64,000 nucleotides of DNA from Verrucomicrobiota bacterium (GCA_049511835.1 JBEKXN010000002.1:11219-75218), one strand, 5' to 3'. Counted from the stretch's first letter, positions 3,188 to 63,324 are shown. Notes: a model not told the origin generated them from the letters alone. A program made the numbers and translations.

Positions 3188-5782
3188 TCAGGAATGATTG
3201 TTTTCAGAGTTCCCATGAAGCACTTCATGCAGTGTATTAAGAATGGTCTCAGCGGTGTAGGGCTTGGGAATAAAATGCTGGATGCCGGTGTTCTTTACCA
3301 TGGCCAGGCCACCGTCGGAGGCCAGGCCGGTTGAACTGACGATCCTGACTCCCGCATTGATGGCTTTGAGGGCAACAACGGTGGCCGGGCCATCCATGAT
3401 GGGCATGGCCATGTCAGTGATGACCACGTCGATTTCCTTCTGCCGGGGTGCGTACACAGAGACGGCTTCAGCGCCATCAGCCGCGAGCAGGACGCGGTAA
3501 CCAAAACGGGTCAGCACTTTTTGCGCAAGGTTGCGGATCGGCTCCTCGTCATCCACGACCAGCACCAGTTCATTATGGCCGTGCGGCAGTTTGGATTGTT
3601 CGATTTCCTCGTCTTTCAATTCATCCAGCGTGGTGTTGGCTGGGAAATAGACTTCGAACACGGTGCCCTTGCCCGTGGTGCTGTGATAATTGATGAAACC
3701 GCCGTGACCCTTGACGATGGCCAAAGTGGTGGACAAACCCAGCCCGGTGCCTTTGCCGAGTGCTTTGGTGGTAAAGAAAGGATCAAATATCTTGTCCTGT
3801 ATCGCCTTCGGAATTCCCGTGCCGGTGTCCTCCACTTTGATACGCACGTACGGGCCGGGCCGGGCTTCCAGATTCATGCCGGCATAGACTTCGTCGAACA
3901 TCACATTTTCCATGTGGATGACCAGGGTGCCGCCTTTGGGCATGGCGTCGCGTGCGTTGACACAGAGATTCAACAGGACCTGGTGGATTTGGGTCGGGTC
4001 GCCGATGATGGTCCAGAGGTCGTCGGGTGAATGGAATTCAAACTTCACTGATTTGGGGAAGGTTTCATGGACAATCTGTTTGATTTCGCGGGCGACGTGA
4101 GCGGGATAAACCATGGTGCGCTCGCCGGTGACCCCGCGTCCGAAAGCCAGCACTTGTTTCACGAGGCTCGCACCGCGCCGGACGTTGGTTTCCAGAACGC
4201 GCAGCAGTTGTTGCCCGTCGTCATCGGTGATTTTTTCCTTTAACATCTGCACCGCGACGAGGAGTGGTGTCAGCACGTTGTTGAGGTCGTGGGCGATGCC
4301 GCCCGCCAGGGTGCCAATGCTTTCCATGCGTTGAGAGCGCAGGAACTGGGTTTCGAACTTCTTCTTTTCGGTGATGTCGCTGAAAAGAAAAAGCAGGTGC
4401 GGTTCGTCACCCCGGACAAAGGGACTGAATTGACAGACCAGCCAGATTTCCTTGCCGAAGGTGCTGACAAAATGGGATTCACACTGCTGCGGGCTTCCGG
4501 TGGCCAGGGTTTTTTCCGCCAGCTTGAGCAGGCCCGAATTGCGCCACGATTCGAGCTGCCGGAAATCCTGGTTCAAAAGTTGGGACACAGTGGCATTGAC
4601 CGTCCGGGCGGCGGCCTCGTTGGCCAATACGCATTGACCGGACGCCTTGTAGACGAGGATCCCCACGGGAGCGTCCGAGATAATTTTCCGGTTGAAATCG
4701 AGCGTCTCAGCCAGGGAGTGCTCCATCCGCTTGCGTTCGGTGATGTCCTGGAGGGTGGAGCGGATGCCGATAACGCGCCCGTCGTCGTCGTAAAGAATCC
4801 GGTTCTCAATCAGGACCGGCAGAAAGGCCCCATCCTTTCGCCGATAGTTTCGTTCCACCAACTCGGTCGCCGGCGTTTTCCCCGCCAGCCGGGCCATGAC
4901 CGCTTCTCTGGCTTTCTCCCGTTCGGCAACAAAGTCCCACATGAAATGCCCCACCATTTCTTCGGTGGTATATCCCAGCATGACCAGTTCAGTGCGATTA
5001 ACCCTGGTGATGCGTCCCGCCTCATCCAACTCGTGATAGCCCACCGGAGCGTCTTCAAACAACGACTCAAATTGTATTTTGCTCTCTTTGAACTCCTTCT
5101 CCGTCCGCTTGCGCTCAGTAATATCTTCTTTGACGGCCAGAAAATGAGCGATGTGGCCGGCCGCGTCGTAAATCGGGGAAATGGAAGCCCACTCCCAATA
5201 AAGTTCACCGTTCTTCTTCCGGTTATGAAATTCTCCGCGCCACTCCCCGCCAGCGACGATCGTTTCCCACAGTCGCTTGTAATTCCCCGGCGGCATTTCA
5301 CCCGACTTCAAAATGCGGGGATTTTTGCCGATCACTTCCCTGGCCGAATAGCCCGTCACCTCCATGAACTTCGGGTTGACATATTCGATGTTGCCGGCCT
5401 TGTCGGTGATGATAATGGAAACCGGACTATGTTCGATGGCAAGCGACAATTTGCGGACTTCTTCATCCGCCTGCTTGCGCTGCCAAATCACGAAGGCCAT
5501 CACCCACAACACGCTGACGCCCATCAAACGGCTGAACATTGCAAAATGGGGGTCAACCCCCGGCGGGGAAAAAATGAACCCTGCCAGCATCAGCAGCGAG
5601 AAAACGGCGGCGAGCAAAATGGGTAAAAGCCGGCCGCCGACATAAACCGATAACAGCAGGGGAATGAAATAGTAAACCCAGTCGGAGATTCCCCAAGGGC
5701 TGGTCAGATCCAAAACAAACCCCCCAATGGCAAAAATGGGGATTGCCACAAGAGCAACCGTTCTAAGTCGCGCAGCGGTCAT
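3188..5782 (-). CDS. Membrane-bound multi-PAS hybrid sensor histidine kinase with C-terminal receiver
   Basis: N-terminal TM helices and three PAS-like blocks ending DITERK. H-box GIAHDLNNVLTPL. HATPase motifs DTGTGI and GTGLGL. Receiver region VLVVDDEEPIR...ITDMAMPIMDG. Confidence 0.9.
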   Translation of the reverse strand: MTAARLRTVALVAIPIFAIGGFVLDLTSPWGISDWVYYFIPLLLSVYVGGRLLPILLAAVFSLLMLAGFIFSPPGVDPHFAMFSRLMGVSVLWVMAFVIWQRKQADEEVRKLSLAIEHSPVSIIITDKAGNIEYVNPKFMEVTGYSAREVIGKNPRILKSGEMPPGNYKRLWETIVAGGEWRGEFHNRKKNGELYWEWASISPIYDAAGHIAHFLAVKEDITERKRTEKEFKESKIQFESLFEDAPVGYHELDEAGRITRVNRTELVMLGYTTEEMVGHFMWDFVAEREKAREAVMARLAGKTPATELVERNYRRKDGAFLPVLIENRILYDDDGRVIGIRSTLQDITERKRMEHSLAETLDFNRKIISDAPVGILVYKASGQCVLANEAAARTVNATVSQLLNQDFRQLESWRNSGLLKLAEKTLATGSPQQCESHFVSTFGKEIWLVCQFSPFVRGDEPHLLFLFSDITEKKKFETQFLRSQRMESIGTLAGGIAHDLNNVLTPLLVAVQMLKEKITDDDGQQLLRVLETNVRRGASLVKQVLAFGRGVTGERTMVYPAHVAREIKQIVHETFPKSVKFEFHSPDDLWTIIGDPTQIHQVLLNLCVNARDAMPKGGTLVIHMENVMFDEVYAGMNLEARPGPYVRIKVEDTGTGIPKAIQDKIFDPFFTTKALGKGTGLGLSTTLAIVKGHGGFINYHSTTGKGTVFEVYFPANTTLDELKDEEIEQSKLPHGHNELVLVVDDEEPIRNLAQKVLTRFGYRVLLAADGAEAVSVYAPRQKEIDVVITDMAMPIMDGPATVVALKAINAGVRIVSSTGLASDGGLAMVKNTGIQHFIPKPYTAETILNTLHEVLHGNSENNHS

Positions 5783-5941
5783 AAGCCATGGTGTCCCTAA
5801 GTTAAATCTAAATATACGTTATTATTATCGCTTAAGCAAGGTGAATCTTCTTAGTATTCTTAAAAGTGGCCCATGACCCGGGGCCAATAACGCTTGCCAA
5901 ATGCGCGCACTGCATTAAAGTGTGCGGCCACTTTTCAATTT

Positions 5942-6283
5942 ATGGACATATATCGCGCAAGCGGAATTTTAGCGGACGTAACTGCGCCGCCGGCGGCTCA
6001 ACCGCAGCCGCCCGTTTGGATGACGTTTGCCCCGATGATTCTGCTGGTCATTGTGTTTTACTTCATTTTGATCCGTCCGCAGCAGCAGCGCACCAAGCAG
6101 CAGGCCAAATTGATTGCCAGCCTCAAATCGGGCGACAAAGTCGTCACGTCCAGCGGCATCGTCGGCGTTGTCATCACGGTGAAGGACCGGACGGTGTCAC
6201 TCCGTTCGATGGACGCCAAAATGGAAGTCACCAAATCTTCAGTCACGGAAATCCTTGAAGGCGGCGATGCCGTAGAATCCTGA
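5942..6283 (+). CDS. yajC: Preprotein translocase subunit YajC
   Basis: PMILLVIVFYFILIRPQQQRTKQQAKLIASLKSGDKVVTSSGIVGVV is a typical YajC sequence. The start is uncertain: ATG 5942 or the ORF-track start at 5894. Confidence 0.85.
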   Translation: MDIYRASGILADVTAPPAAQPQPPVWMTFAPMILLVIVFYFILIRPQQQRTKQQAKLIASLKSGDKVVTSSGIVGVVITVKDRTVSLRSMDAKMEVTKSSVTEILEGGDAVES

Positions 6284-6290
6284 GCCAACC

Positions 6291-8852
6291 ATGAGCCGAA
6301 ACAATCCCTGGATAGTTCTTTTTGTTGTTCTGATCGTCTGCTGGTCGTTTTACGAAATGTATCCGCCGACGTCGCGCAGCCTGGTGCAGGAGTTTGAAAC
6401 GCGGGCGGTGAACCGGGACACGAACTTTACGGGCATCGTGCAGCGGGTCCAGCCGTTGCAGCAGGCGCGGCCTGAACGCGAGTTCGCCAATTTGCAGGAG
6501 GCCATCGGCACGAACAGCATCGTGCCGTATTTCCCGTTTATCAACACCACCAACCAGGTGCATCCCAATGTTTTCATCCTGAACCAGCTTCAGCGCGATG
6601 CGTCGGGCAAAATCAAGCTGGGACTGGACTTGCGCGGTGGCACATCGTTCCTCGTGGAAATGGACACCAACCAACTGATTTATGTCGAGACGGTCACCAA
6701 CACCGACGGCACGGTCACCACGACGACCAACATGGCCCGGGCGGAAGGCGCGCTGTCCCAGGCGGTCGAGGTGTTGCGCAAGCGCGTGGACGCTTTCGGT
6801 GTGGCCGAACCCATCATTCAACCGGCGGGCGCCAACCGTATTTTGATCCAGTTGCCCGGTCTGTCGGAAGCCGTCAAGGCGGAAGCCCAGACCAACATCC
6901 AGAAATCCGCGTATCTGGAATTCCGAATGGTGAAGGAAGACAGTGATGAAATCATCAGGAACAACGAGCCGATTCCGCCCGGATACGAGAAGCTCCGGCG
7001 CATTGAGCAGCAGCCCAATGGCCCGCCGGTCGTCGAAGAGGTCATCGTCAAGAAAAAGCCGGAGCATGGTTTGGCCGGGGACATTGTTGACAACGCCATG
7101 GCGGTGCGCGGCAATCTGGGCGAGCCGCAGATTGAATTCCGGCTGAACCGGGAAGGCGCGAAACGTTTCGGCGAGGTGACCCGAAACAACATCGGACAAC
7201 GGCTGGCCATCATCTTGGACGGCGAGTTGTATTCCGCGCCGGTCATCCAAAGCGCGATTGAAACAGGCAGCGGCCAGATCACCGGGCACTTTACAACCGA
7301 ACAGGCCCTGCAACTGGCCAACGTCCTGCAAAACCCGCTCCGCGCCCCGCTCAGAATTGATTCTTCCTATGATGTGGACCCGACGCTCGGCGCCGATTCG
7401 ATTCGCAGCGGCATCCGCGCTTCCGTGATGGGTGTCATCTTTGTTTCCGCGTTCATGCTTTGCTATTATCTGCTCGCGGGCGTCGTGGCAAATGTCGCGC
7501 TGGTCACCAACATCATCATCCTGCTCGGGGTGATGTGCTCCATCGGCACAACGCTCACGTTGCCGGGCATTGCGGGCGTGGTGCTCACCGTCGGCATGGC
7601 AGTGGATGCCAACGTGCTGATTTACGAGCGCATCCGCGAGGAACTGGCCAAGGGCAAATCGCTGCGCGGCGCCGTCGCCGCCGGTTATGCCCGCGCCTTC
7701 GGCACGATTTTCGACTCGCATGTCACGACGCTGATTTCCTCGATCATTTTGATTTTCATGGGCACGGGTGAAATCAAGGGGTTCGGTGTCACGCTGACCA
7801 TTGGCGTGGCCGCCAGCCTGTTCACCGCGCTGGTGGTGACGCGGCTCATCTTCAATTTTCTGCTCGACCACAACTGGATCAAATCACTGCGGATGTTTCA
7901 CCTCATTCGCGCCACCAAACTCGACTTTATGAGTCTCGCCAAGCCGGCGTTCATTTTGACCTGGACGATTATCCTCATCGGCATGGGCTACGGAATTTTT
8001 GACCGCGGCTCGAAATTGTTCGGCGTGGATTTCGCCGGCGGCGACAGCACGACGTTCAGCTTTCACCAAAAAGTAGATGTGGAGCAAATCCGCGCCGCGT
8101 TGACACAAGTCGGTGAAAAGGATTCGCAAATCCAATATCAAAAAGACGTGGCTGGCAGCGGCGCCGAGACGCTCCGCGTGACCACGTCAACCGGCTCCGC
8201 CAAAAAAATCGAGCAGGCCCTATCCAGTCAATTTCCGCAAGCGCAGTTCAAAACCATCGGCCAGCAGAGCGTCGGCGCGGTGGTGGGCGACGAAATCAAA
8301 CGCTCGGCCATCATCGCCTCGTTGCTGTCGTTGTTCGGCATTCTGATTTATGTGGCGTTCCGTTACGAATTTTACTTCGCCGTCGGCGCGGTCGTCGCGG
8401 TCATTCACGACGTGTTTATGACGATTGGCTGTTATTGCATTGCCAACGGCATTTCGGGCCGCGAATTCAACGCCACGGTCGTTGCGGCGATTCTGACCAT
8501 CATTGGCTTCTCCACTAATGACACCATCGTGATTTTTGACCGCATCCGGGAAGACCTGAAGCTCGGCGTGCGCGGCACGTTCAAGGAAATCATCAACCAG
8601 GCGCTCAATCAAACCTTGAGCCGGACGCTGATCACCTCGGGCACGGTGTTTCTGGCCACAACGGCGCTTTACATTTTTGGCGGTGGCGTCATCAACGACT
8701 TCGCATTCACGTTCCTCATCGGCATCCTTACCGGCACGTACTCGAGCATCTACATCGCCAGCGCGCTGGTGTTGTGGTTGCACAAGGGTGAGCGTCCGTC
8801 CATCGGCGGCTCGCAGGTGACGATGCAAAACACGACGACGGCGCGCGTCTGA
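6291..8852 (+). CDS. secDF: Protein translocase SecDF fusion
   Basis: 853 aa with a large periplasmic domain followed by two 6-TM blocks (DANVLIYERIREE.. and NDTIVIFDRIRED..). Sits directly after yajC. Confidence 0.93.
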   Translation: MSRNNPWIVLFVVLIVCWSFYEMYPPTSRSLVQEFETRAVNRDTNFTGIVQRVQPLQQARPEREFANLQEAIGTNSIVPYFPFINTTNQVHPNVFILNQLQRDASGKIKLGLDLRGGTSFLVEMDTNQLIYVETVTNTDGTVTTTTNMARAEGALSQAVEVLRKRVDAFGVAEPIIQPAGANRILIQLPGLSEAVKAEAQTNIQKSAYLEFRMVKEDSDEIIRNNEPIPPGYEKLRRIEQQPNGPPVVEEVIVKKKPEHGLAGDIVDNAMAVRGNLGEPQIEFRLNREGAKRFGEVTRNNIGQRLAIILDGELYSAPVIQSAIETGSGQITGHFTTEQALQLANVLQNPLRAPLRIDSSYDVDPTLGADSIRSGIRASVMGVIFVSAFMLCYYLLAGVVANVALVTNIIILLGVMCSIGTTLTLPGIAGVVLTVGMAVDANVLIYERIREELAKGKSLRGAVAAGYARAFGTIFDSHVTTLISSIILIFMGTGEIKGFGVTLTIGVAASLFTALVVTRLIFNFLLDHNWIKSLRMFHLIRATKLDFMSLAKPAFILTWTIILIGMGYGIFDRGSKLFGVDFAGGDSTTFSFHQKVDVEQIRAALTQVGEKDSQIQYQKDVAGSGAETLRVTTSTGSAKKIEQALSSQFPQAQFKTIGQQSVGAVVGDEIKRSAIIASLLSLFGILIYVAFRYEFYFAVGAVVAVIHDVFMTIGCYCIANGISGREFNATVVAAILTIIGFSTNDTIVIFDRIREDLKLGVRGTFKEIINQALNQTLSRTLITSGTVFLATTALYIFGGGVINDFAFTFLIGILTGTYSSIYIASALVLWLHKGERPSIGGSQVTMQNTTTARV

Positions 8853-52310: not shown

Positions 52311-54227
<1,917 letters not shown>

Positions 54228-54341: not shown

Positions 54342-54503
54342 CTACCGTCTGCCGTAGCGAAGCATTACCATCGCCATGGTTCCAGCGACAACAAGGCTGA
54401 CCAGCAGAACGAGAACGATGATGGACATCTGATTTTTGCGCTGATCGCGTGCCAAATGCGGGAACAGCAGCTTGCCCAAACGTTTGGAGAAATACCTTGT
54501 CAT
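54342..54503 (-). CDS. Small membrane protein (53 aa), not in the ORF track
   Basis: My own translation: MTRYFSKRLGKLLFPHLARDQRKNQMSIIVLVLLVSLVVAGTMAMVMLRYGRR. Paralog of the adjacent gene. Confidence 0.6.
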   Translation of the reverse strand: MTRYFSKRLGKLLFPHLARDQRKNQMSIIVLVLLVSLVVAGTMAMVMLRYGRR

Positions 54504-54519
54504 ATTCACAACGGAGCCA

Positions 54520-54678
54520 TCAGTGCCGGCCGGACATCATCCACATCACCAGCGAGCCGGCGCCGCAAAGGCTGGCCATGAAAACGAGCAGGATGGTTTG
54601 CAACTGGTGATTGCGCTGGTCGCGCGCCAGATGCGGGAACAGCAGCTTGCCCGTGCGTTTTACAAGATATTCGGTCAT
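54520..54678 (-). CDS. Small membrane protein (52 aa), tandem paralog, not in the ORF track
   Basis: My own translation: MTEYLVKRTGKLLFPHLARDQRNHQLQTILLVFMASLCGAGSLVMWMMSGRH. Synonymous differences from its neighbour in the conserved GKLLFPHLARDQR block argue for real coding sequence. Confidence 0.6.
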   Translation of the reverse strand: MTEYLVKRTGKLLFPHLARDQRNHQLQTILLVFMASLCGAGSLVMWMMSGRH

Positions 54679-56532: not shown

Positions 56533-57000
56533 ATGACAAAGGAACTGAAATTAAAGGAAGGCGATCCCGCGCCGGCGTTTTCGGCGGCAACCAACGGCGG
56601 AGGCAAAGTTTCGCTGGCCGATTTGCGGGGCAAAAATGTTGTTCTGTATTTTTATCCGAAGGATGACACGCCGGGCTGCACGAAGGAGGCGTGCGCGTTC
56701 CGCGACCATTTCGCCGATTTCAAAAAAAGGGGCGCCGTGGTGCTGGGCGTCAGCACCGACCCGGTGAAGTCGCACGACAAATTCGTGGAGAAATTCAAGC
56801 TGCCGTTCACGTTGCTGGCGGACGAGGACAAAAAGATCGTCCAGGCTTATGGCGTTTGGGGCGAGAAAAGTTTCATGGGCCGGAAATACCTGGGAACGCA
56901 CCGCGTGACGTTTCTCATCGGTCCGGACGGGCGCATCAAAAAAATCTGGCTGCAAGTGAAACCCGACGAGCACGCGGAGGAAGTGCTGGCGGTGTTGTAA
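56533..57000 (+). CDS. bcp: Thioredoxin-dependent peroxiredoxin Bcp
   Basis: GDPAPAF...VVLYFYPKDDTPGCTKEACAFRD. Confidence 0.9.
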   Translation: MTKELKLKEGDPAPAFSAATNGGGKVSLADLRGKNVVLYFYPKDDTPGCTKEACAFRDHFADFKKRGAVVLGVSTDPVKSHDKFVEKFKLPFTLLADEDKKIVQAYGVWGEKSFMGRKYLGTHRVTFLIGPDGRIKKIWLQVKPDEHAEEVLAVL

Positions 57001-57225: not shown

Positions 57226-58869
57226 ATGATTAACCGCTGGCACTTGGCATTGGCTTGTGCCGTTTCCAGCTTGCTGCTGCTGCTTTGCGGCTTGCTGGTG
57301 CCGGCGTATTTGCGGGCGGTGGATGTCAATGTTATCCAACGGGCCGGGCGGGACACGCCGGCCCTGACCGCACAGGGGCTGTCGCTCGTGAACCAGCAGA
57401 ACCTGGGGACCGCCTGGTTGTTTTTTCAAACGGCGCAAGCGGGGGGAATTTCCGGCCGGGAAAATCTCGGCCTGGCCGTGACCAATGCGATGCGGCAGCA
57501 TCCCGACTGGCTGGTTTGGGGCAACGACTCCGCGTTGAAACGTCTCTTCGGGAATGATTCCCCGTCGCCGGAGCCTTTCACCGGGTTCATCGTCCGGCAA
57601 AAAAACCGGGAGGCCGCCCTGGATCTGCTGCGCGCCTCCACCAGTCCCACCGTGCAGGAGTTGCTGCGCTGCCGCACGCTGACCGGCACCATCCTGTTTA
57701 CGCCGTCGCAGTCGGCTTCCGGCCAGGCCTTTGATGTGGCGGTGACGACTTGCGGATTGTTGGTGGAGGAAGGGCGGTTGACGACGGGTTTGGGCGACAA
57801 CATTTTCAAACTGGCCTCGACCGCCAATCGTGGCGGTGGTTCGCAACCGTTGGAGCAGGTGCTGATGGATTTGATGTCGCTGGGCCGGCGATTCAGTTGG
57901 GACCAGCTTGTGGCGTTTACCGGCCGCGTTGAAGACGCCGGGACGTTGCATGCCCTCGCCGACCAGGTCCGCGATGTCGGCGGGCAATTGCCCGTGCTTT
58001 TCTCCGCCGTGGCGCTTTCCGGCAAGCCGGCGGCGGTGGCGAAATATGTCGCGCATTTTCCCCAGACCGCGTTGACCGATCTCGGTTACAGTCTCCGGTT
58101 CGGTGCGGGCGGTGTGAACGAACTATTGGCGCGCGACCAACTGCTTTACCGCGCCGGGTCCCGCCTGCACCTGGGGGTGGAATGCAGTCTGCGGCTGCCG
58201 TGGCTGGCGTTCATGCTGAAATGGCTGGGCTACCTGTCGAGTGGATTTCTTCTGGCCGCATCGCTGCATTTTGCGCGGCCGGCCGTATCGTCCCTGGAAC
58301 GACCGTTGCAGGTGCGCGGGTTCCATGTGGTCCGCGAGAGTTTGTTTGCGTTGGGTTTCCTGCTGGTGGTGCTGCTTCTGAGCGAGCCGTTTCTCGCCCA
58401 GGACACACGGAAAGAGGAGTACGCCTTTCGGCTGCACGTGCCCACGACGGGCCCGGTGGTCCTGGCTGGATTCGCCCGCAATCATCCCAAAATTATGAAC
58501 AACATGATCCTGCTGACCCTGCTGCTGTTCTTCGTGCTGCAGGCACTGATCTACATCGCCTGCCTCGTGAAGCTGGCGGAAATCCGCCGGCAGAACGTCA
58601 CGCCGCGCTTCAAGCTCAGGCTGCTCGAAAACGAAGACCACCTGTTCGACGCCGGCCTGTACCTGGGCTTCGTCGGCACCATCATCTCGTTGATCCTCGT
58701 CTCGATGGGGGTCATCAAATTCAGCCTGATGGCCGCCTACTCGTCCACGTCCTTCGGCATCATCTTCGTGTGCGTGTTTAAAATCTTCAACCTGCGCCCG
58801 GCCCGCCGGCGATTGCTGCTGGAATCCGAAGCCGAAGCCGCCACGCCAACGCCGGTCACACCGTCATGA
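57226..58869 (+). CDS. Large membrane protein with C-terminal MotA/TolQ/ExbB-like channel domain
   Basis: 547 aa with an N-terminal signal anchor, about 300 aa of unknown domain and two extra TM helices. A final three-helix block follows with AGLYLGFVGTIISL and SSTSFGIIFVCVFKIFN. This resembles the G-L-L-G-T-V and T-T-x-x-G-L signatures of ExbB/TolQ. Confidence 0.6.
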   Translation: MINRWHLALACAVSSLLLLLCGLLVPAYLRAVDVNVIQRAGRDTPALTAQGLSLVNQQNLGTAWLFFQTAQAGGISGRENLGLAVTNAMRQHPDWLVWGNDSALKRLFGNDSPSPEPFTGFIVRQKNREAALDLLRASTSPTVQELLRCRTLTGTILFTPSQSASGQAFDVAVTTCGLLVEEGRLTTGLGDNIFKLASTANRGGGSQPLEQVLMDLMSLGRRFSWDQLVAFTGRVEDAGTLHALADQVRDVGGQLPVLFSAVALSGKPAAVAKYVAHFPQTALTDLGYSLRFGAGGVNELLARDQLLYRAGSRLHLGVECSLRLPWLAFMLKWLGYLSSGFLLAASLHFARPAVSSLERPLQVRGFHVVRESLFALGFLLVVLLLSEPFLAQDTRKEEYAFRLHVPTTGPVVLAGFARNHPKIMNNMILLTLLLFFVLQALIYIACLVKLAEIRRQNVTPRFKLRLLENEDHLFDAGLYLGFVGTIISLILVSMGVIKFSLMAAYSSTSFGIIFVCVFKIFNLRPARRRLLLESEAEAATPTPVTPS

Positions 58870-60260
58870 ACCGCAGCATCCTCATTGTCATCTGCGACTT
58901 CCTGTTGCTGAGCCTGCTGACGTTCTCAACGGACCTCAGCAAGATGGCCGGCGAGAATGAAGGCTCCGCGGCGACCGTCAAGGTGGACGTCATGCCCAAA
59001 ACGGGGGACAACAACTCGAAGGATCTCGCGGCGGTCATGCAACAGGCGCTCGGCGAGGAGCAAAAGAACCGCGAACAATTGCAGGCGGAACTGGCCCAGG
59101 CCCGCGAGGCGGCGCGGCAGCAACAGGAGCAATTCGACCAGCAGGCCAAAGAACTGCAGCAAAAACAATCGAACCTGGAACAGCAGTACGCCACGGCCCA
59201 GGCCAGCATCCAGGCGCTCAACCAGAAATTGCAGAGCAGTTCCGCCGAAACCTCGATGACCCGGGAACAGCTCGCGGTGAAGGAGGCTGAAATCCAAAAG
59301 CAGACCGACCTGGCCGCCGCCCTGCAGAAGCAACTCGCTCAACTCGCGAAAAACAACCAGATTGCCCAGGACGAAAAGCAGAAGCTGGCCGGCCAGCTCC
59401 AGGTGGCGGAAGTTGAGAAGCGGGCCGCCGGCGAAAAAGCCGCCCTGATGCAGCAACAGGTGCAGGCCGAGCGCGCCACCAACGTCAGGCTGGCCGAAGA
59501 TTTCAAGGCGCTGGCAACCAATTCCAGCGCCCTGACCCAGGAAATCCGGGAGAACCGGGCCTTGGCGCCCAACACCATCTTCAGTGAATTTGTCAGCAAC
59601 CGGGTCTGGACCCGGTTCCTGGCTTCCCGATCCGGCTTCCTCGGCATTAATTCCAGGAGCAGCAAGGAGACCGAAACGGTGCTGGTCACCGACGGGACCC
59701 ATACTTTCGCGTTGTGCCATGTGCAAGACACCCCGCTGACTTTGTGGGATCCCGGCACGGACTGGGATGTGCTTACGGGAACGCTGGATCACAACACGGC
59801 GCAAGTTCCCATCCGCTCGTTGTCCTTTCACATTCAGGATCCGCGCGTGGTATTCATGCCCGTCACGCAGACGGAAGTCCGCCAGCTCGGCTGCAAGGTT
59901 TACCCGGTTGCATCAGACCCGTACAAATTCCAGGATGCGGTGGTGATCGGTGTGCAAGGGGACTATTACGGCCAAAGCAGTTTCCAGATTGATGTGAACA
60001 CGCCAGCATACGTCAAACTGGACCGCAATCTTTTGAAGGGGCTGTTCGGGAAATTCAATCCCTCACGCGGCGACCTGGTCTTCAGCCGGACCGGCGAATT
60101 ATTGGGCGTCATGGCCAACAGCACCTACTGCCTGGTGCTGCATGACTTTGCTTCGGAGGTAACCTTCCCCTTTGGCCGGGACATTCGCGCCCAGCACACC
60201 GGCGACGCCTTGTCCCAGCTTTATTCATACGTGTTCAACCTGCCCTCGAAACTGAAATAA
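58866..60260 (+). CDS. ExbD/TolR-like single-pass protein with long coiled coil and unknown C-terminal beta domain
   Basis: ATGA overlap with the upstream gene. The N-terminal SILIVICDFLLLSLLTF has a lone Asp (D11, codon 58896-58898), then ATVKVDVMP. Compare ExbD/TolR (I/L)DV(M/L)LVLL(I/L)IF ... V-x-V-x-LP. About 200 aa of Q/A/E/K-rich heptad-like sequence and about 230 aa of beta-rich domain follow. Confidence 0.6.
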   Translation: MNRSILIVICDFLLLSLLTFSTDLSKMAGENEGSAATVKVDVMPKTGDNNSKDLAAVMQQALGEEQKNREQLQAELAQAREAARQQQEQFDQQAKELQQKQSNLEQQYATAQASIQALNQKLQSSSAETSMTREQLAVKEAEIQKQTDLAAALQKQLAQLAKNNQIAQDEKQKLAGQLQVAEVEKRAAGEKAALMQQQVQAERATNVRLAEDFKALATNSSALTQEIRENRALAPNTIFSEFVSNRVWTRFLASRSGFLGINSRSSKETETVLVTDGTHTFALCHVQDTPLTLWDPGTDWDVLTGTLDHNTAQVPIRSLSFHIQDPRVVFMPVTQTEVRQLGCKVYPVASDPYKFQDAVVIGVQGDYYGQSSFQIDVNTPAYVKLDRNLLKGLFGKFNPSRGDLVFSRTGELLGVMANSTYCLVLHDFASEVTFPFGRDIRAQHTGDALSQLYSYVFNLPSKLK

Positions 60261-60410: not shown

Positions 60411-60445
60411 AAATAAAAAACCCCGCAGAAGTCTGCGGGGTTTGG
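60411..60445 (-). terminator. Intrinsic terminator between convergent genes (strong on the minus strand, weak on the plus strand)
   Basis: aaataaaaaa-ccccgcag-aagt-ctgcgggg-tttgg. An 8-bp GC stem with a long T-run on the minus strand. Confidence 0.8.
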
Positions 60446-61729: not shown

Positions 61730-62209
61730 ATGGCAATATCTGTCGGCTCCAAGGCTCCCGACTTCAACCTTAAATCCAAACAGGCGTCCGGCGTCGTGGA
61801 CGTGAAACTCAGCAACAACTTCGGCAAAAAGAACACCGTCCTGCTGTTCTTCCCGCTCGCCTTCACCGGCGTCTGCACCACCGAGATGTGCGACATCACC
61901 GCCGGCCTGTCGGCCTACTCCGGCATGAACGCCGACGTCATCGCCATCAGCGTGGACAGCCCGTTCGCCCAGGAAGCGTGGGCCAAGCAGAACAAAATCG
62001 GCATCACGCTCGCCAGCGACCTGAACAAAACCACCGCCAAGGCTTACGGCGTCCTGCTCAACGACCTGATGGGCTTCGGTTCCACAGCAGCGCGCGCGGC
62101 GTTCGTGATTGATAAGCAAGGCGTCGTGCAATACAGCGAACAAACGCCGACGCCGAAGGACCTGCCGAACTTCGAAGCCGTCAAGGCGGCGCTGGCGAAG
62201 TTGAAATAA
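61730..62209 (+). CDS. Peroxiredoxin (AhpC/TSA family, AhpE-like)
   Basis: KAPDFNL...VLLFFPLAFTGVCTTEMC. Confidence 0.88.
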   Translation: MAISVGSKAPDFNLKSKQASGVVDVKLSNNFGKKNTVLLFFPLAFTGVCTTEMCDITAGLSAYSGMNADVIAISVDSPFAQEAWAKQNKIGITLASDLNKTTAKAYGVLLNDLMGFGSTAARAAFVIDKQGVVQYSEQTPTPKDLPNFEAVKAALAKLK

Positions 62210-62391: not shown

Positions 62392-63324
62392 TTACAACTT
62401 TGGCGGAACGTTTGAAGCAGCCATCCATTCGCTCATGGGTCGCAGGCTGCCGCATTCGGGGCAGGACGCTGCGGCGAATTGAGTTCCACAGTTGGGACAG
62501 ACGCCCCGCGTTTCAAACATGTCAAAGGCCTTCCGGCATTTGCCGCATACCCAGAATGCGCCGCGGGGCGGGGCGACTTTGCAGACCGGGCAGGCAAATC
62601 CGTCGTGATGCGGCGCATTGGCGACACGGCCCAGTGCGCGGGCCTGCATCAAACCGCCCCAGCAATTCATCACAATGAGCACGCAGATGCCGCCCAGTAT
62701 GAGATTTTGTTGCAACATGGCCAGTCCGATTAACGCCGCCACGCCAATGAATCCAATGATGCTGACAATCATCAAACTTTTCGCGCGTCCGAACGCAAAC
62801 CAGAGCAGCGACCGCAAAATCTGTCCACCGTCGAGCGGGTAAATCGGCAGCATGTTGAAAACAAGCAGGACTACGTTGATGGAAAAGAGCATGAAGATAA
62901 AATTGAAGACGTTTGGATTCGCGTCCTCCCAGCCGGCGGATTTTCCAAAGACCAATAAAATCCCGAACAGCGGGAACAGCACCACATTCACCAGCGGCCC
63001 GGCGGCGATGCTCCACAGCGTCGCGCCTGGACGCTGCGGCGGCGACACATAAGCCACGCCGCCAAGCACCCACAGCACAATGTCATGAGTTTTCCCGCCT
63101 ACGGAGCGGCACGCCAGTTGGTGTCCAAACTCATGAATCAACACGATCAAGAACAACGAGAAACATTCCAACACGCTCCACAACAGAGATGAATAACCTT
63201 TCGCCTGATAGACGAAATAAGCGACAGCTAAAAACCACGCCCAGTGTAAATAAACTGTGATGCCGAAAAGTTGGAAGAGTCGGATGGAGCCTTGTCGCGT
63301 TGGCATGTTGCATGAACTTATCAC
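62392..63324 (-). CDS. M50 family (site-2 protease-like) metallopeptidase with C-terminal double zinc ribbon
   Basis: HEFGHQLACR and NMLPIYPLDGG motifs. The C-terminus carries four CxxC pairs (CPVC, CGKC, CPNC, CPEC). Confidence 0.85.
   Translation of the reverse strand: MISSCNMPTRQGSIRLFQLFGITVYLHWAWFLAVAYFVYQAKGYSSLLWSVLECFSLFLIVLIHEFGHQLACRSVGGKTHDIVLWVLGGVAYVSPPQRPGATLWSIAAGPLVNVVLFPLFGILLVFGKSAGWEDANPNVFNFIFMLFSINVVLLVFNMLPIYPLDGGQILRSLLWFAFGRAKSLMIVSIIGFIGVAALIGLAMLQQNLILGGICVLIVMNCWGGLMQARALGRVANAPHHDGFACPVCKVAPPRGAFWVCGKCRKAFDMFETRGVCPNCGTQFAAASCPECGSLRPMSEWMAASNVPPKL

Follow-up and report, generated by a model that had tools for sequence, protein, structure and literature searches.

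In a 64,000-nucleotide window of the genome of a Verrucomicrobiota bacterium (GCA_049511835.1, JBEKXN010000002.1:11219-75218), two overlapping genes at positions 57226-60260, counted from the first letter of the window, encode membrane proteins of an undescribed family that is absent from Pfam, NCBIfam and PADLOC. We find that the module is a self-contained, vertically conserved two-gene inner-membrane pair of Limisphaerales/Pedosphaera-type Verrucomicrobiota, and we give an even chance to the proposal that it is a divergent ion-driven motor of the 5:2 type whose inner subunit is its own force transducer. Gene 1 (57226..58869; plus strand, as are all features of the pair given below) encodes a polytopic inner-membrane protein of 547 amino acids, the putative 'A' or outer-ring subunit, and gene 2 (58866..60260) a bitopic, N-in membrane protein of 464 amino acids, the putative 'B' subunit, inner and dimeric. 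The start of gene 2 and the stop of gene 1 share an ATGA overlap (58866..58869), an arrangement of the sequence that implies translational coupling. An earlier reading of the window made from the DNA sequence alone (hereafter the sequence-only reading) had proposed this pair of open reading frames (ORFs) and their overlap, and both were recovered as proposed.

Homologues of both genes are numerous and uniformly nameless. A large protein collection holds at least 1,468 relatives of gene 1 and at least 2,283 of gene 2, all of them unnamed or labelled 'hypothetical', while an exhaustive profile search for gene 1 gave 762 representative clusters at 50 % identity, nearly all with the full architecture of about 550 amino acids. 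In data with one genome per species, at least 542 genomes encode a relative, and those carriers whose names can be trusted are Verrucomicrobiota (Limisphaerales, Pedosphaera and 'subdivision 3'), many of them from peat, bog or soil. Of 80 loci, 79 have gene 2 directly 3' of gene 1, in most cases with the same four-base ATGA overlap, and at the lone exception the contig ends 57 bp after gene 1; the conservation of the two genes as neighbours, which the sequence-only reading had named as a test of its own proposal, is accordingly strong. No other gene family recurs within ±6 kb of the pair, and the neighbours found in the window are common to at most seven closely related loci. It is this combination of a constant gene 2 with no other recurring neighbour that leads us to describe the pair as self-contained and vertically conserved, and across these species (at least 542) it is broadly retained by vertical descent under strong purifying selection.

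Close homologues also occur in metagenome-assembled genomes (L024, L026, L031, L041, L044, L054, L068, L071, L075, L076 and L084) that carry non-Verrucomicrobial labels, namely Acidoferrum, Limnocylindrales, Baltobacteraceae, Bifidobacteriaceae, Saccharimonadales, Sulfopaludibacter and Angelobacter. Because their sequences are 43-67 % identical to Verrucomicrobial ones, the source records appear to be misbinned or wrongly classified.

Hydropathy and AlphaFold2 (AF2) agree on six hydrophobic helices in gene 1, at residues 5-27, 325-349, 361-390, 426-455, 471-493 and 501-522. The first transmembrane (TM) helix, TM1 (residues 5-27, 57238..57306; AF2 helix 2-24), contains an invariant P26 and is a signal anchor or possibly a cleavable signal peptide. 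It is followed by a soluble all-alpha domain (residues ~30-320, 57313..58185), predicted to be periplasmic and modelled with about 17 helices at a predicted local distance difference test (pLDDT) score of ~85-94, for which we found no recognisable family in Pfam, even with the family consensus as query, and no fold in a Foldseek search of the PDB (nothing at E<0.39). TM2 and TM3 (residues 325-349 and 361-390, 58198..58395) are extra helices that ExbB and TolQ do not have, the second of them ending in an invariant E387-P388 (SEPF). TM4 (residues 426-455, 58501..58590), with F435 and Q439 invariant, is topologically equivalent to TM1 of ExbB, and after it come a cytoplasmic ENE(D/E)xLFD loop and the TM5-TM6 hairpin (residues 460-530, 58603..58815), which together resemble the channel module of MotA, ExbB and TolQ; the order TM4, short cytoplasmic loop, TM5, TM6 matches the ExbB topology. 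The signal anchor, the soluble domain of about 300 amino acids and the additional TM helices that had been read from the sequence are thus all found, and the C-terminal motifs quoted with them are present in what proves to be the most conserved part of the family.

That conservation was measured in an alignment of 61 family members with identities of 27-60 %, in which the invariant residues of gene 1 cluster in the last three helices together with the short loop that precedes these. They comprise E387, F435, Q439, N469, E470, F474, D475, L478, G481, G484 and L489, and further along Y505, S507, G511, K519 and R524. Near-invariant G-x-x-G-T and S-T-x-x-G motifs lie in the last two helices, the threonine of the first motif (T485) being Thr in 57 sequences and Ser in four, and that of the second (T508) Thr in 49, Ser in three and Asn in nine.

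Whether these two helices are related to the ion-path helices of known motors was approached by profile comparison. A first HHalign reference that consisted of only the Escherichia coli ExbB and TolQ gave gene 1 a probability of 4-10 % and genuine MotA 3 %, and since MotA itself scored no better, this version of the test was underpowered. A search of about 1 Mb of Verrucomicrobial loci for genuine ExbB/TolQ reference genes found none, and the improved reference was built from 17 genuine ExbB/TolQ proteins of about 30 % mutual identity taken from annotated plasmids and chromids. On this profile the probability for gene 1 rose from 5.8 % to 43.6 %: residues 460-547 scored 29.7 with P 2.4e-4, a P value that belongs to a hypothesis picked by eye from the same motifs and that would not be significant after a Pfam-wide correction. 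The control, E. coli MotA against the same 17-protein profile, gave a score of 34.2, a probability of 44.9 % and P 2.2e-4. None of 100 locally shuffled alignments reached 29.7 (14.7 ± 2.7, maximum 22.1; z about 5.6), the reversed alignment scored 16.5, and the other regions of gene 1 scored 9.0 (residues 320-459) and 15.9 (residues 1-319). A longer query, residues 420-547, spanned ExbB 22-214 at a probability of 32 %. In the resulting register G481, G484 and T485 fall on ExbB G144, G147 and T148, and T508 and G511 on ExbB T181 and G184, so that the equivalents of the two ExbB hydroxyls, T148 and T181, are conserved in gene 1 as T485 and T508.

A ranking test pointed the same way. When an HMM (hidden Markov model) of the gene 1 C-terminal hairpin was run against a decoy set of about 5,970 ORF segments from 1 Mb of Verrucomicrobial DNA, proteins of the ExbB family took ranks 1, 3, 4, 5, 6 and 10; conversely, with an ExbB/TolQ channel HMM, gene 1 homologues, which make up 1.4 % of the set, took 50 of the top 100 places (1.4 expected), although individual E-values were poor (1-30) and each set consists of related sequences, so that these ranks amount to one observation and not many. 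Taken at its proper weight, the comparison suggests, at a borderline level, that the last two helices of gene 1 come as near to the ion-path helices (TM2/TM3) of ExbB and TolQ as those of MotA do. The sequence-only reading had proposed that the C-terminus of gene 1 resembles MotA/ExbB. Of this claim the register and a borderline targeted similarity, equal to that of MotA, have stood, while the match to a family library or to a known fold has not.

The partner subunit is built on a different plan. After a short cytoplasmic N-terminus of about three residues, gene 2 has its sole TM helix (residues 3-22, 58872..58931), which reads SILIVICDFLLLSLLTF, contains no His, and bears Asp11 (codon 58896-58898) near its cytoplasmic end. 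The single helix with its lone Asp had been noted from the sequence, and among 75 gene 2 homologues D11 is invariant (75/75), as are N2 and R3; down to overall identities of 42-45 % the invariant positions are M1, N2, R3, I5, L6, I7, D11, F12, L13, L14, L17 and F20. The trait by which ExbD, TolR and MotB are functionally defined, one TM helix with an invariant Asp towards the cytoplasmic side, is present in gene 2. Gene 2 is not a member of the ExbD family, because it does not have the ExbD periplasmic domain. HHalign places D11 on ExbD D25 and on MotB D32, without statistical support in either case. The variable linker that follows (residues 23-49, 58932..59012) is disordered, with pLDDT <50, and it is here that the segment TVKVDVMP lies. 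It had been likened to the V-x-V-x-L-P strand of ExbD, a resemblance that we attribute to chance, the segment being part of a non-conserved linker modelled at low confidence.

Beyond the linker gene 2 continues as a helical rod (residues 50-230, 59013..59555), a coiled-coil-type stretch rich in Q, A, E, L and K that would be about 27 nm long if extended and that AF2 models as two long helices (residues 50-127 and 133-230). The segment of about 200 amino acids that had been described from the sequence as Q/A/E/K-rich and heptad-like is therefore real as a long helical stretch, and its sequence has more power at periods of 3.5 and 7 than shuffled sequences do (p about 0.013). Rod length ranges from 161 to 283 amino acids across the homologues, with two mod-7 classes taking 74 of the 75, and the two helix segments vary in length independently of one another (r = 0.28). 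This independence led us to reject an antiparallel, folded-back hairpin, and it argues for an extended parallel rod, quantised in heptads and about 24-42 nm long across the family. Single-sequence scans of gene 2 against Pfam, NCBIfam and PADLOC returned only coiled-coil noise (SMC, MAD, JetC, TolA and the ZorA3 tail); the NCBIfam TolA match at E = 0.031 and the PADLOC ZorA3 match at E = 0.03 both cover only the coiled-coil region. As a long helical element that spans the periplasm, the rod resembles domain II of TolA.

The rod ends in a domain (residues 235-464, 59568..60257; AF2 pLDDT 85-95) that is confidently predicted, from its model, to have the chymotrypsin fold of the HtrA/Deg type; no other fold assignment in the module is statistically solid. 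The top 22 PDB matches of the gene 2 model in Foldseek are all chymotrypsin-fold serine proteases, with E-values down to 4.9e-7 and probabilities of 0.99-1.00, most of them HtrA/Deg proteins (Deg9, Deg2, Deg1, DegS, DegQ and HtrA1) beside sobemovirus proteases and a kallikrein. The likeness is invisible to sequence HMMs, which gave no Trypsin_2 or PDZ match for the protein or the family consensus and no HtrA among PDB profiles, and an HHalign comparison of the head with DegP, DegQ and DegS was not significant (P 0.09) and was used only for register. In this register H285 (59718-59720) stands at the position of the catalytic His and S400 (60063-60065), within an NPS(R)GD motif, at that of the catalytic Ser; H285 is kept in 74 of 75 homologues, and position 400 is Ser in 71 and Thr in four. 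The position of the canonical catalytic Asp, in contrast, is variable and is here P315 (P 51, S 11, A 9, D 1), with an invariant D325-P326-R327 ten residues past it. Gene 2 ends about 25 residues after the protease fold.

The head thus shares with HtrA, DegP and DegS (MEROPS S1C) a two-barrel fold of the chymotrypsin type, a periplasmic location, and, in the HHalign register, a His and a Ser in canonical motifs (xxHV; Ser followed by xGxLV...GELxG), and it departs from them in escaping the Pfam Trypsin_2 model, in having no PDZ domain, in the replacement of the Asp, in reading NPS-R-G-D-L-V where DegP, DegQ and DegS read GNS-G-G-A-L-V, and in being carried by a coiled-coil rod whose anchor is an Asp-bearing TM helix. 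The sequence-only reading had seen a trypsin-fold-like motif 'without the Ser'; the fold was correctly recognised, but it is the canonical Asp that is missing, S400 being aligned with the catalytic Ser. On the strength of the model the head may be an active protease, an enzyme with a Ser/His dyad, or a peptide-binding pseudo-protease.

If the pair is a motor, its working might be as follows. Five gene 1 subunits would surround, through TM5 and TM6, a dimer of gene 2 TM helices, and a flux of protons (or Na+) past Asp11 and the hydroxyls of Thr485 and Thr508 would drive the gene 2 dimer to rotate relative to the gene 1 ring or to move like a piston. The parallel coiled-coil rod would transmit the work across the periplasm, where the HtrA-like head would bind a partner close to the outer membrane or the peptidoglycan at an extended peptide segment, and perhaps cleave that segment. 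A collar made of the periplasmic helical domain and the additional TM helices of gene 1 could anchor or gate the complex, standing in for the missing plug and peptidoglycan-binding domains of ExbD and MotB, and a candidate cytoplasmic gate or contact would be formed by N469, E470, D475, K519 and R524 of gene 1 with N2-R3 of gene 2. A stronger version of this proposal, which we consider unlikely, makes the pair a proteolytic or extraction machine powered by the proton-motive force, in which a 5:2 rotary motor turns or pulls a coiled-coil shaft of 25-40 nm and the HtrA-fold head takes hold of substrates close to the outer membrane and possibly cleaves them. We know of no 5:2 motor to which the function of an energy-dependent protease or unfoldase is coupled.

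A number of results weigh against the motor proposal. Single-sequence scans place gene 1 in no family of Pfam, NCBIfam or PADLOC, searches of PDB sequence profiles with narrow and broad alignments gave no ExbB, MotA or TolQ match, and the Foldseek search that gave nothing at E<0.39 was made with the full gene 1 model. Only one of the 61 diverse members touches PF01618 (E = 0.16), and no other Pfam family is matched consistently (DUF2231 in five of 61, best E = 0.029), while a scan of all of Pfam with the family consensus brings up DUF4407 (E = 0.015) in place of MotA_ExbB. Glu176 of ExbB, conserved there, is Ala in gene 1, and the five membrane helices of its C-terminal half are modelled weakly as a monomer (AF2 pLDDT 30-76). 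For gene 2 there is no Pfam or NCBIfam match to ExbD/TolR or to an OmpA-like domain, the searches of PDB sequence profiles brought up no ExbD, and its N-terminus gave no HHalign signal against 17 ExbD/TolR proteins (P 0.02-0.2), a comparison in which genuine MotB, run against the same profile, also fails (P 0.07); a helix of 20 residues carries too little information for the ExbD/TolR likeness foreseen for this N-terminus to show in sequence. Finally, the 5:2 stoichiometry, the ion conduction and the movement are all putative. The idea of a self-contained stator in which the plug subunit carries its own arm and effector, put forward in the sequence-only reading, is to that extent plausible and has a published precedent, discussed below, with its stoichiometry and ion conduction still inferred.

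The DUF4407 match aligns consensus residues ~478-534 with the N-terminal TM hairpin of that family (positions 13-69 of 297), and no individual member reaches it. The literature on DUF4407 held nothing informative, and we treat the match as noise.

That the HtrA fold is the sole statistically solid fold assignment, with H285 and S400 retained, and that every library search for MotA, ExbB or ExbD was negative, also fits an account in which nothing moves: a membrane-anchored HtrA-like protease or pseudo-protease on a stalk, with a polytopic scaffold or regulator beside it. Gene 2 would then be a periplasmic quality-control or signalling protease and gene 1 its modulator, or a partner resembling an anti-sigma-type sensor, and Asp11 would serve only to pack its helix against Q439, E387 and K519 of gene 1, several invariant polar residues in the gene 1 membrane helices being available to pair with it. 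We regard this as possible though rather doubtful, for it leaves unexplained the likeness of TM5/TM6 to ExbB/TolQ, validated by controls, with its top ranks among about 6,000 ORFs, as well as the extreme invariance of the whole gene 2 TM helix and the presence of a rod of 24-42 nm beneath a protease head. The rod itself could instead be the point of the system. Its length matches the width of the periplasm and is quantised in heptads, as would suit a passive tether or spacer in which gene 2 is a static coiled-coil strut like Lpp or TolA domain II, gene 1 is its anchor, and the inner membrane is joined to the peptidoglycan or the outer membrane by an HtrA-fold domain that binds but no longer catalyses; the absence of the canonical catalytic Asp (P315) and the replacement of S400 by Thr in four of 75 homologues would agree with a dead enzyme. 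A passive anchor, however, needs neither an invariant buried Asp and an invariant MNR N-terminus nor a polytopic partner of 547 amino acids with ExbB-like motifs, and H285, S400 and the NPS.GD motif are conserved far beyond the needs of a scaffold, so that we think a mere tether quite improbable.

The self-contained logic of two genes in a variable genomic context also recalls Zorya, a system reported to show that MotAB-like motors can serve in defence (PMC11890865). Here a 5:2 motor would sense phage or other damage to the envelope and activate a protease effector. Such a role strikes us as very improbable. PADLOC gives no match for gene 1 and only coiled-coil noise for gene 2, the flanking genes are housekeeping genes in DNA of ordinary local GC content, and broad vertical conservation in at least 542 species under strong purifying selection is unlike the patchy distribution of defence islands. 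The long arm, moreover, is periplasmic here, whereas the ZorA tail is cytoplasmic, and no third gene is conserved within ±6 kb across the loci, so that no ZorC/D or ZorE partner accompanies the pair. Pairs of the FtsX/EnvC and NfeD/stomatin type were set aside since their topology and folds do not fit.

Compared with known motors, the proposed 5:2 machine combines familiar and unfamiliar parts. It has the gene order of ExbB-ExbD and TolQ-TolR (A then B, tightly coupled), the A-subunit topology in its last three helices, the G-x-x-G-T and T-x-x-G motifs of ExbB/TolQ, placed in register by the borderline profile comparison, in the last two, and a B subunit with a single TM helix whose Asp lies near the cytoplasmic end. 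Unlike ExbB and TolQ, gene 1 has no significant HMM match, a cytoplasmic domain shrunk to some 25 residues and, ahead of the channel module, a periplasmic helical domain of 290 amino acids with three additional TM helices, and it does not conserve Glu176 of ExbB; unlike ExbD and TolR, gene 2 has a rod and an HtrA fold in place of the periplasmic domain. Systems that work through TonB or TolA use a separate protein for this purpose, whereas here there is no separate TonB or TolA (no SHLS helix), no Pal or TolB, and the B subunit itself carries the rod and head as fused parts. With the flagellar stators the pair shares less: gene 1 scores against the ExbB/TolQ profile as MotA does, and an Asp-Phe occurs in the TM helix of the B subunit (ADF in MotB, CDF in gene 2), but it lacks the OmpA-like peptidoglycan-binding domain, the FliG-interacting cytoplasmic domain and the flagellar genes that go with MotA-MotB or PomA-PomB. 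From ZorA-ZorB it differs in having no cytoplasmic ZorA tail and no ZorC or ZorD partner, and in being negative in PADLOC.

GldL-GldM offers a parallel in one respect, the inner dimeric subunit of that 5:2 motor (GldM) being a long dimer that spans the periplasm from a single TM helix, and it too lies too far from MotAB for simple HMM detection. GldM is nevertheless made of beta-rich domains, with no coiled coil and no protease fold, and the key charged residues follow another distribution; unlike gene 1, GldL combines two TM helices with a cytoplasmic domain, and GldL-GldM is confined to Bacteroidota and tied to genes of the type IX secretion system. A published precedent is a TolQ-like pentamer paired with an Asp-bearing transpore helix (TPH) fused to a vWA domain, which occurs in the absence of tolR/exbD, in Verrucomicrobia among others, and whose members are predicted to be 'monomeric force transducers' (PMC12204202). 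There, as here, an inner dimeric Asp-bearing TM helix is fused to a periplasmic linker and an effector. The effector in our pair is an HtrA fold on a coiled-coil rod, against a vWA domain on a proline-rich or disordered linker; the A subunit of the published pairs is a recognisable TolQ homologue, whereas gene 1 escapes all HMM libraries and bears large additions; and there is a single B gene in place of the usual heterologous vWA pairs. A survey of MotAB relatives has likewise reported uncharacterised N-terminal appendages on non-flagellar A subunits (PMC12505986).

GC content around the pair is 0.58-0.60, as is usual for the window, and its neighbours are housekeeping or unrelated genes. Upstream lie genes for glutaminyl-tRNA synthetase (GlnRS), PurE, a CDP-alcohol phosphatidyltransferase and a Bcp-type peroxiredoxin, and downstream a convergent gene for a LamG/PEP-CTERM protein, a second peroxiredoxin, an M50 peptidase and a response regulator. 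No TonB, TolA, Pal, OmpA or flagellar gene occurs near the pair in the window, just as the sequence-only reading had stated. Its strong terminator after the pair has to be reassigned: a GC-rich hairpin between the convergent genes (60418..60443, minus strand), 158 nt past the gene 2 stop, has its T-run TTTTTTATTT on the minus strand, whereas TTT is all that follows on the plus strand. It is probably a strong intrinsic terminator that primarily serves the minus-strand LamG/PEP-CTERM gene, as the strand of its T-run indicates, and with only TTT on the plus strand the termination of the gene 1/gene 2 operon is less clear than had been assumed.

Several neighbours have features of their own. Peroxiredoxins of the AhpC/TSA type stand on both sides of the pair (56533-57000 and 61730-62209, both plus strand), a flanking that is common only to the closest ~7 loci and lies outside the conserved module. 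Between glnS and purE are two tandem paralogous small ORFs of 55 and 52 amino acids (54342-54509 and 54520-54678, both minus strand), in each of which a basic N-terminal motif (…KRxGKLLFPHLARDQR…) precedes a single C-terminal TM helix, and the DNA beneath them is a 117-nt direct repeat of 74 % identity. The M50-family (site-2 protease-like) membrane peptidase at 62392-63324 (minus strand) has a Cys-rich C-terminal tail with four CxxC pairs (CPVC…CGKC…CPNC…CPEC) that looks like a double zinc ribbon. In GlnRS (52311-54227, minus strand; 638 amino acids) the catalytic-domain match takes 359 residues over 312 profile positions, which points to an insertion of about 45 residues inside that domain. 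In one distant relative, a 4.6-Mb Verrucomicrobial contig (L001), two overlapping genes of 690 and 432 amino acids (4494-7861, plus strand), neither with any Pfam domain, lie directly upstream of the pair, a position that they do not occupy in the window or in L002.

To our knowledge, 5:2 motors (MotAB, ExbBD, TolQR, GldLM and ZorAB) are the only known bacterial route by which energy is delivered across the periplasm, and with each new output domain on such motors new biology of the envelope has come to light. A survey that sets out from MotA_ExbB matches would miss this pair, although at least 542 species of Verrucomicrobiota, abundant in soil and peat, possess it. Were the pair truly a motor, it would widen the sequence space of A subunits to proteins with extra TM helices and a periplasmic collar, its B subunit would join the predicted TPH-vWA proteins as the second example of an inner subunit that transduces force by itself, and a 5:2 motor would for the first time be linked to a head of the HtrA type; were the further proposal of a proteolytic machine also true, the ATP-free periplasm would have gained an energy-dependent protease or unfoldase. 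Should the motor reading fail, these Verrucomicrobiota would still possess a conserved and undescribed stalk-mounted HtrA-like protein with an obligate membrane partner.

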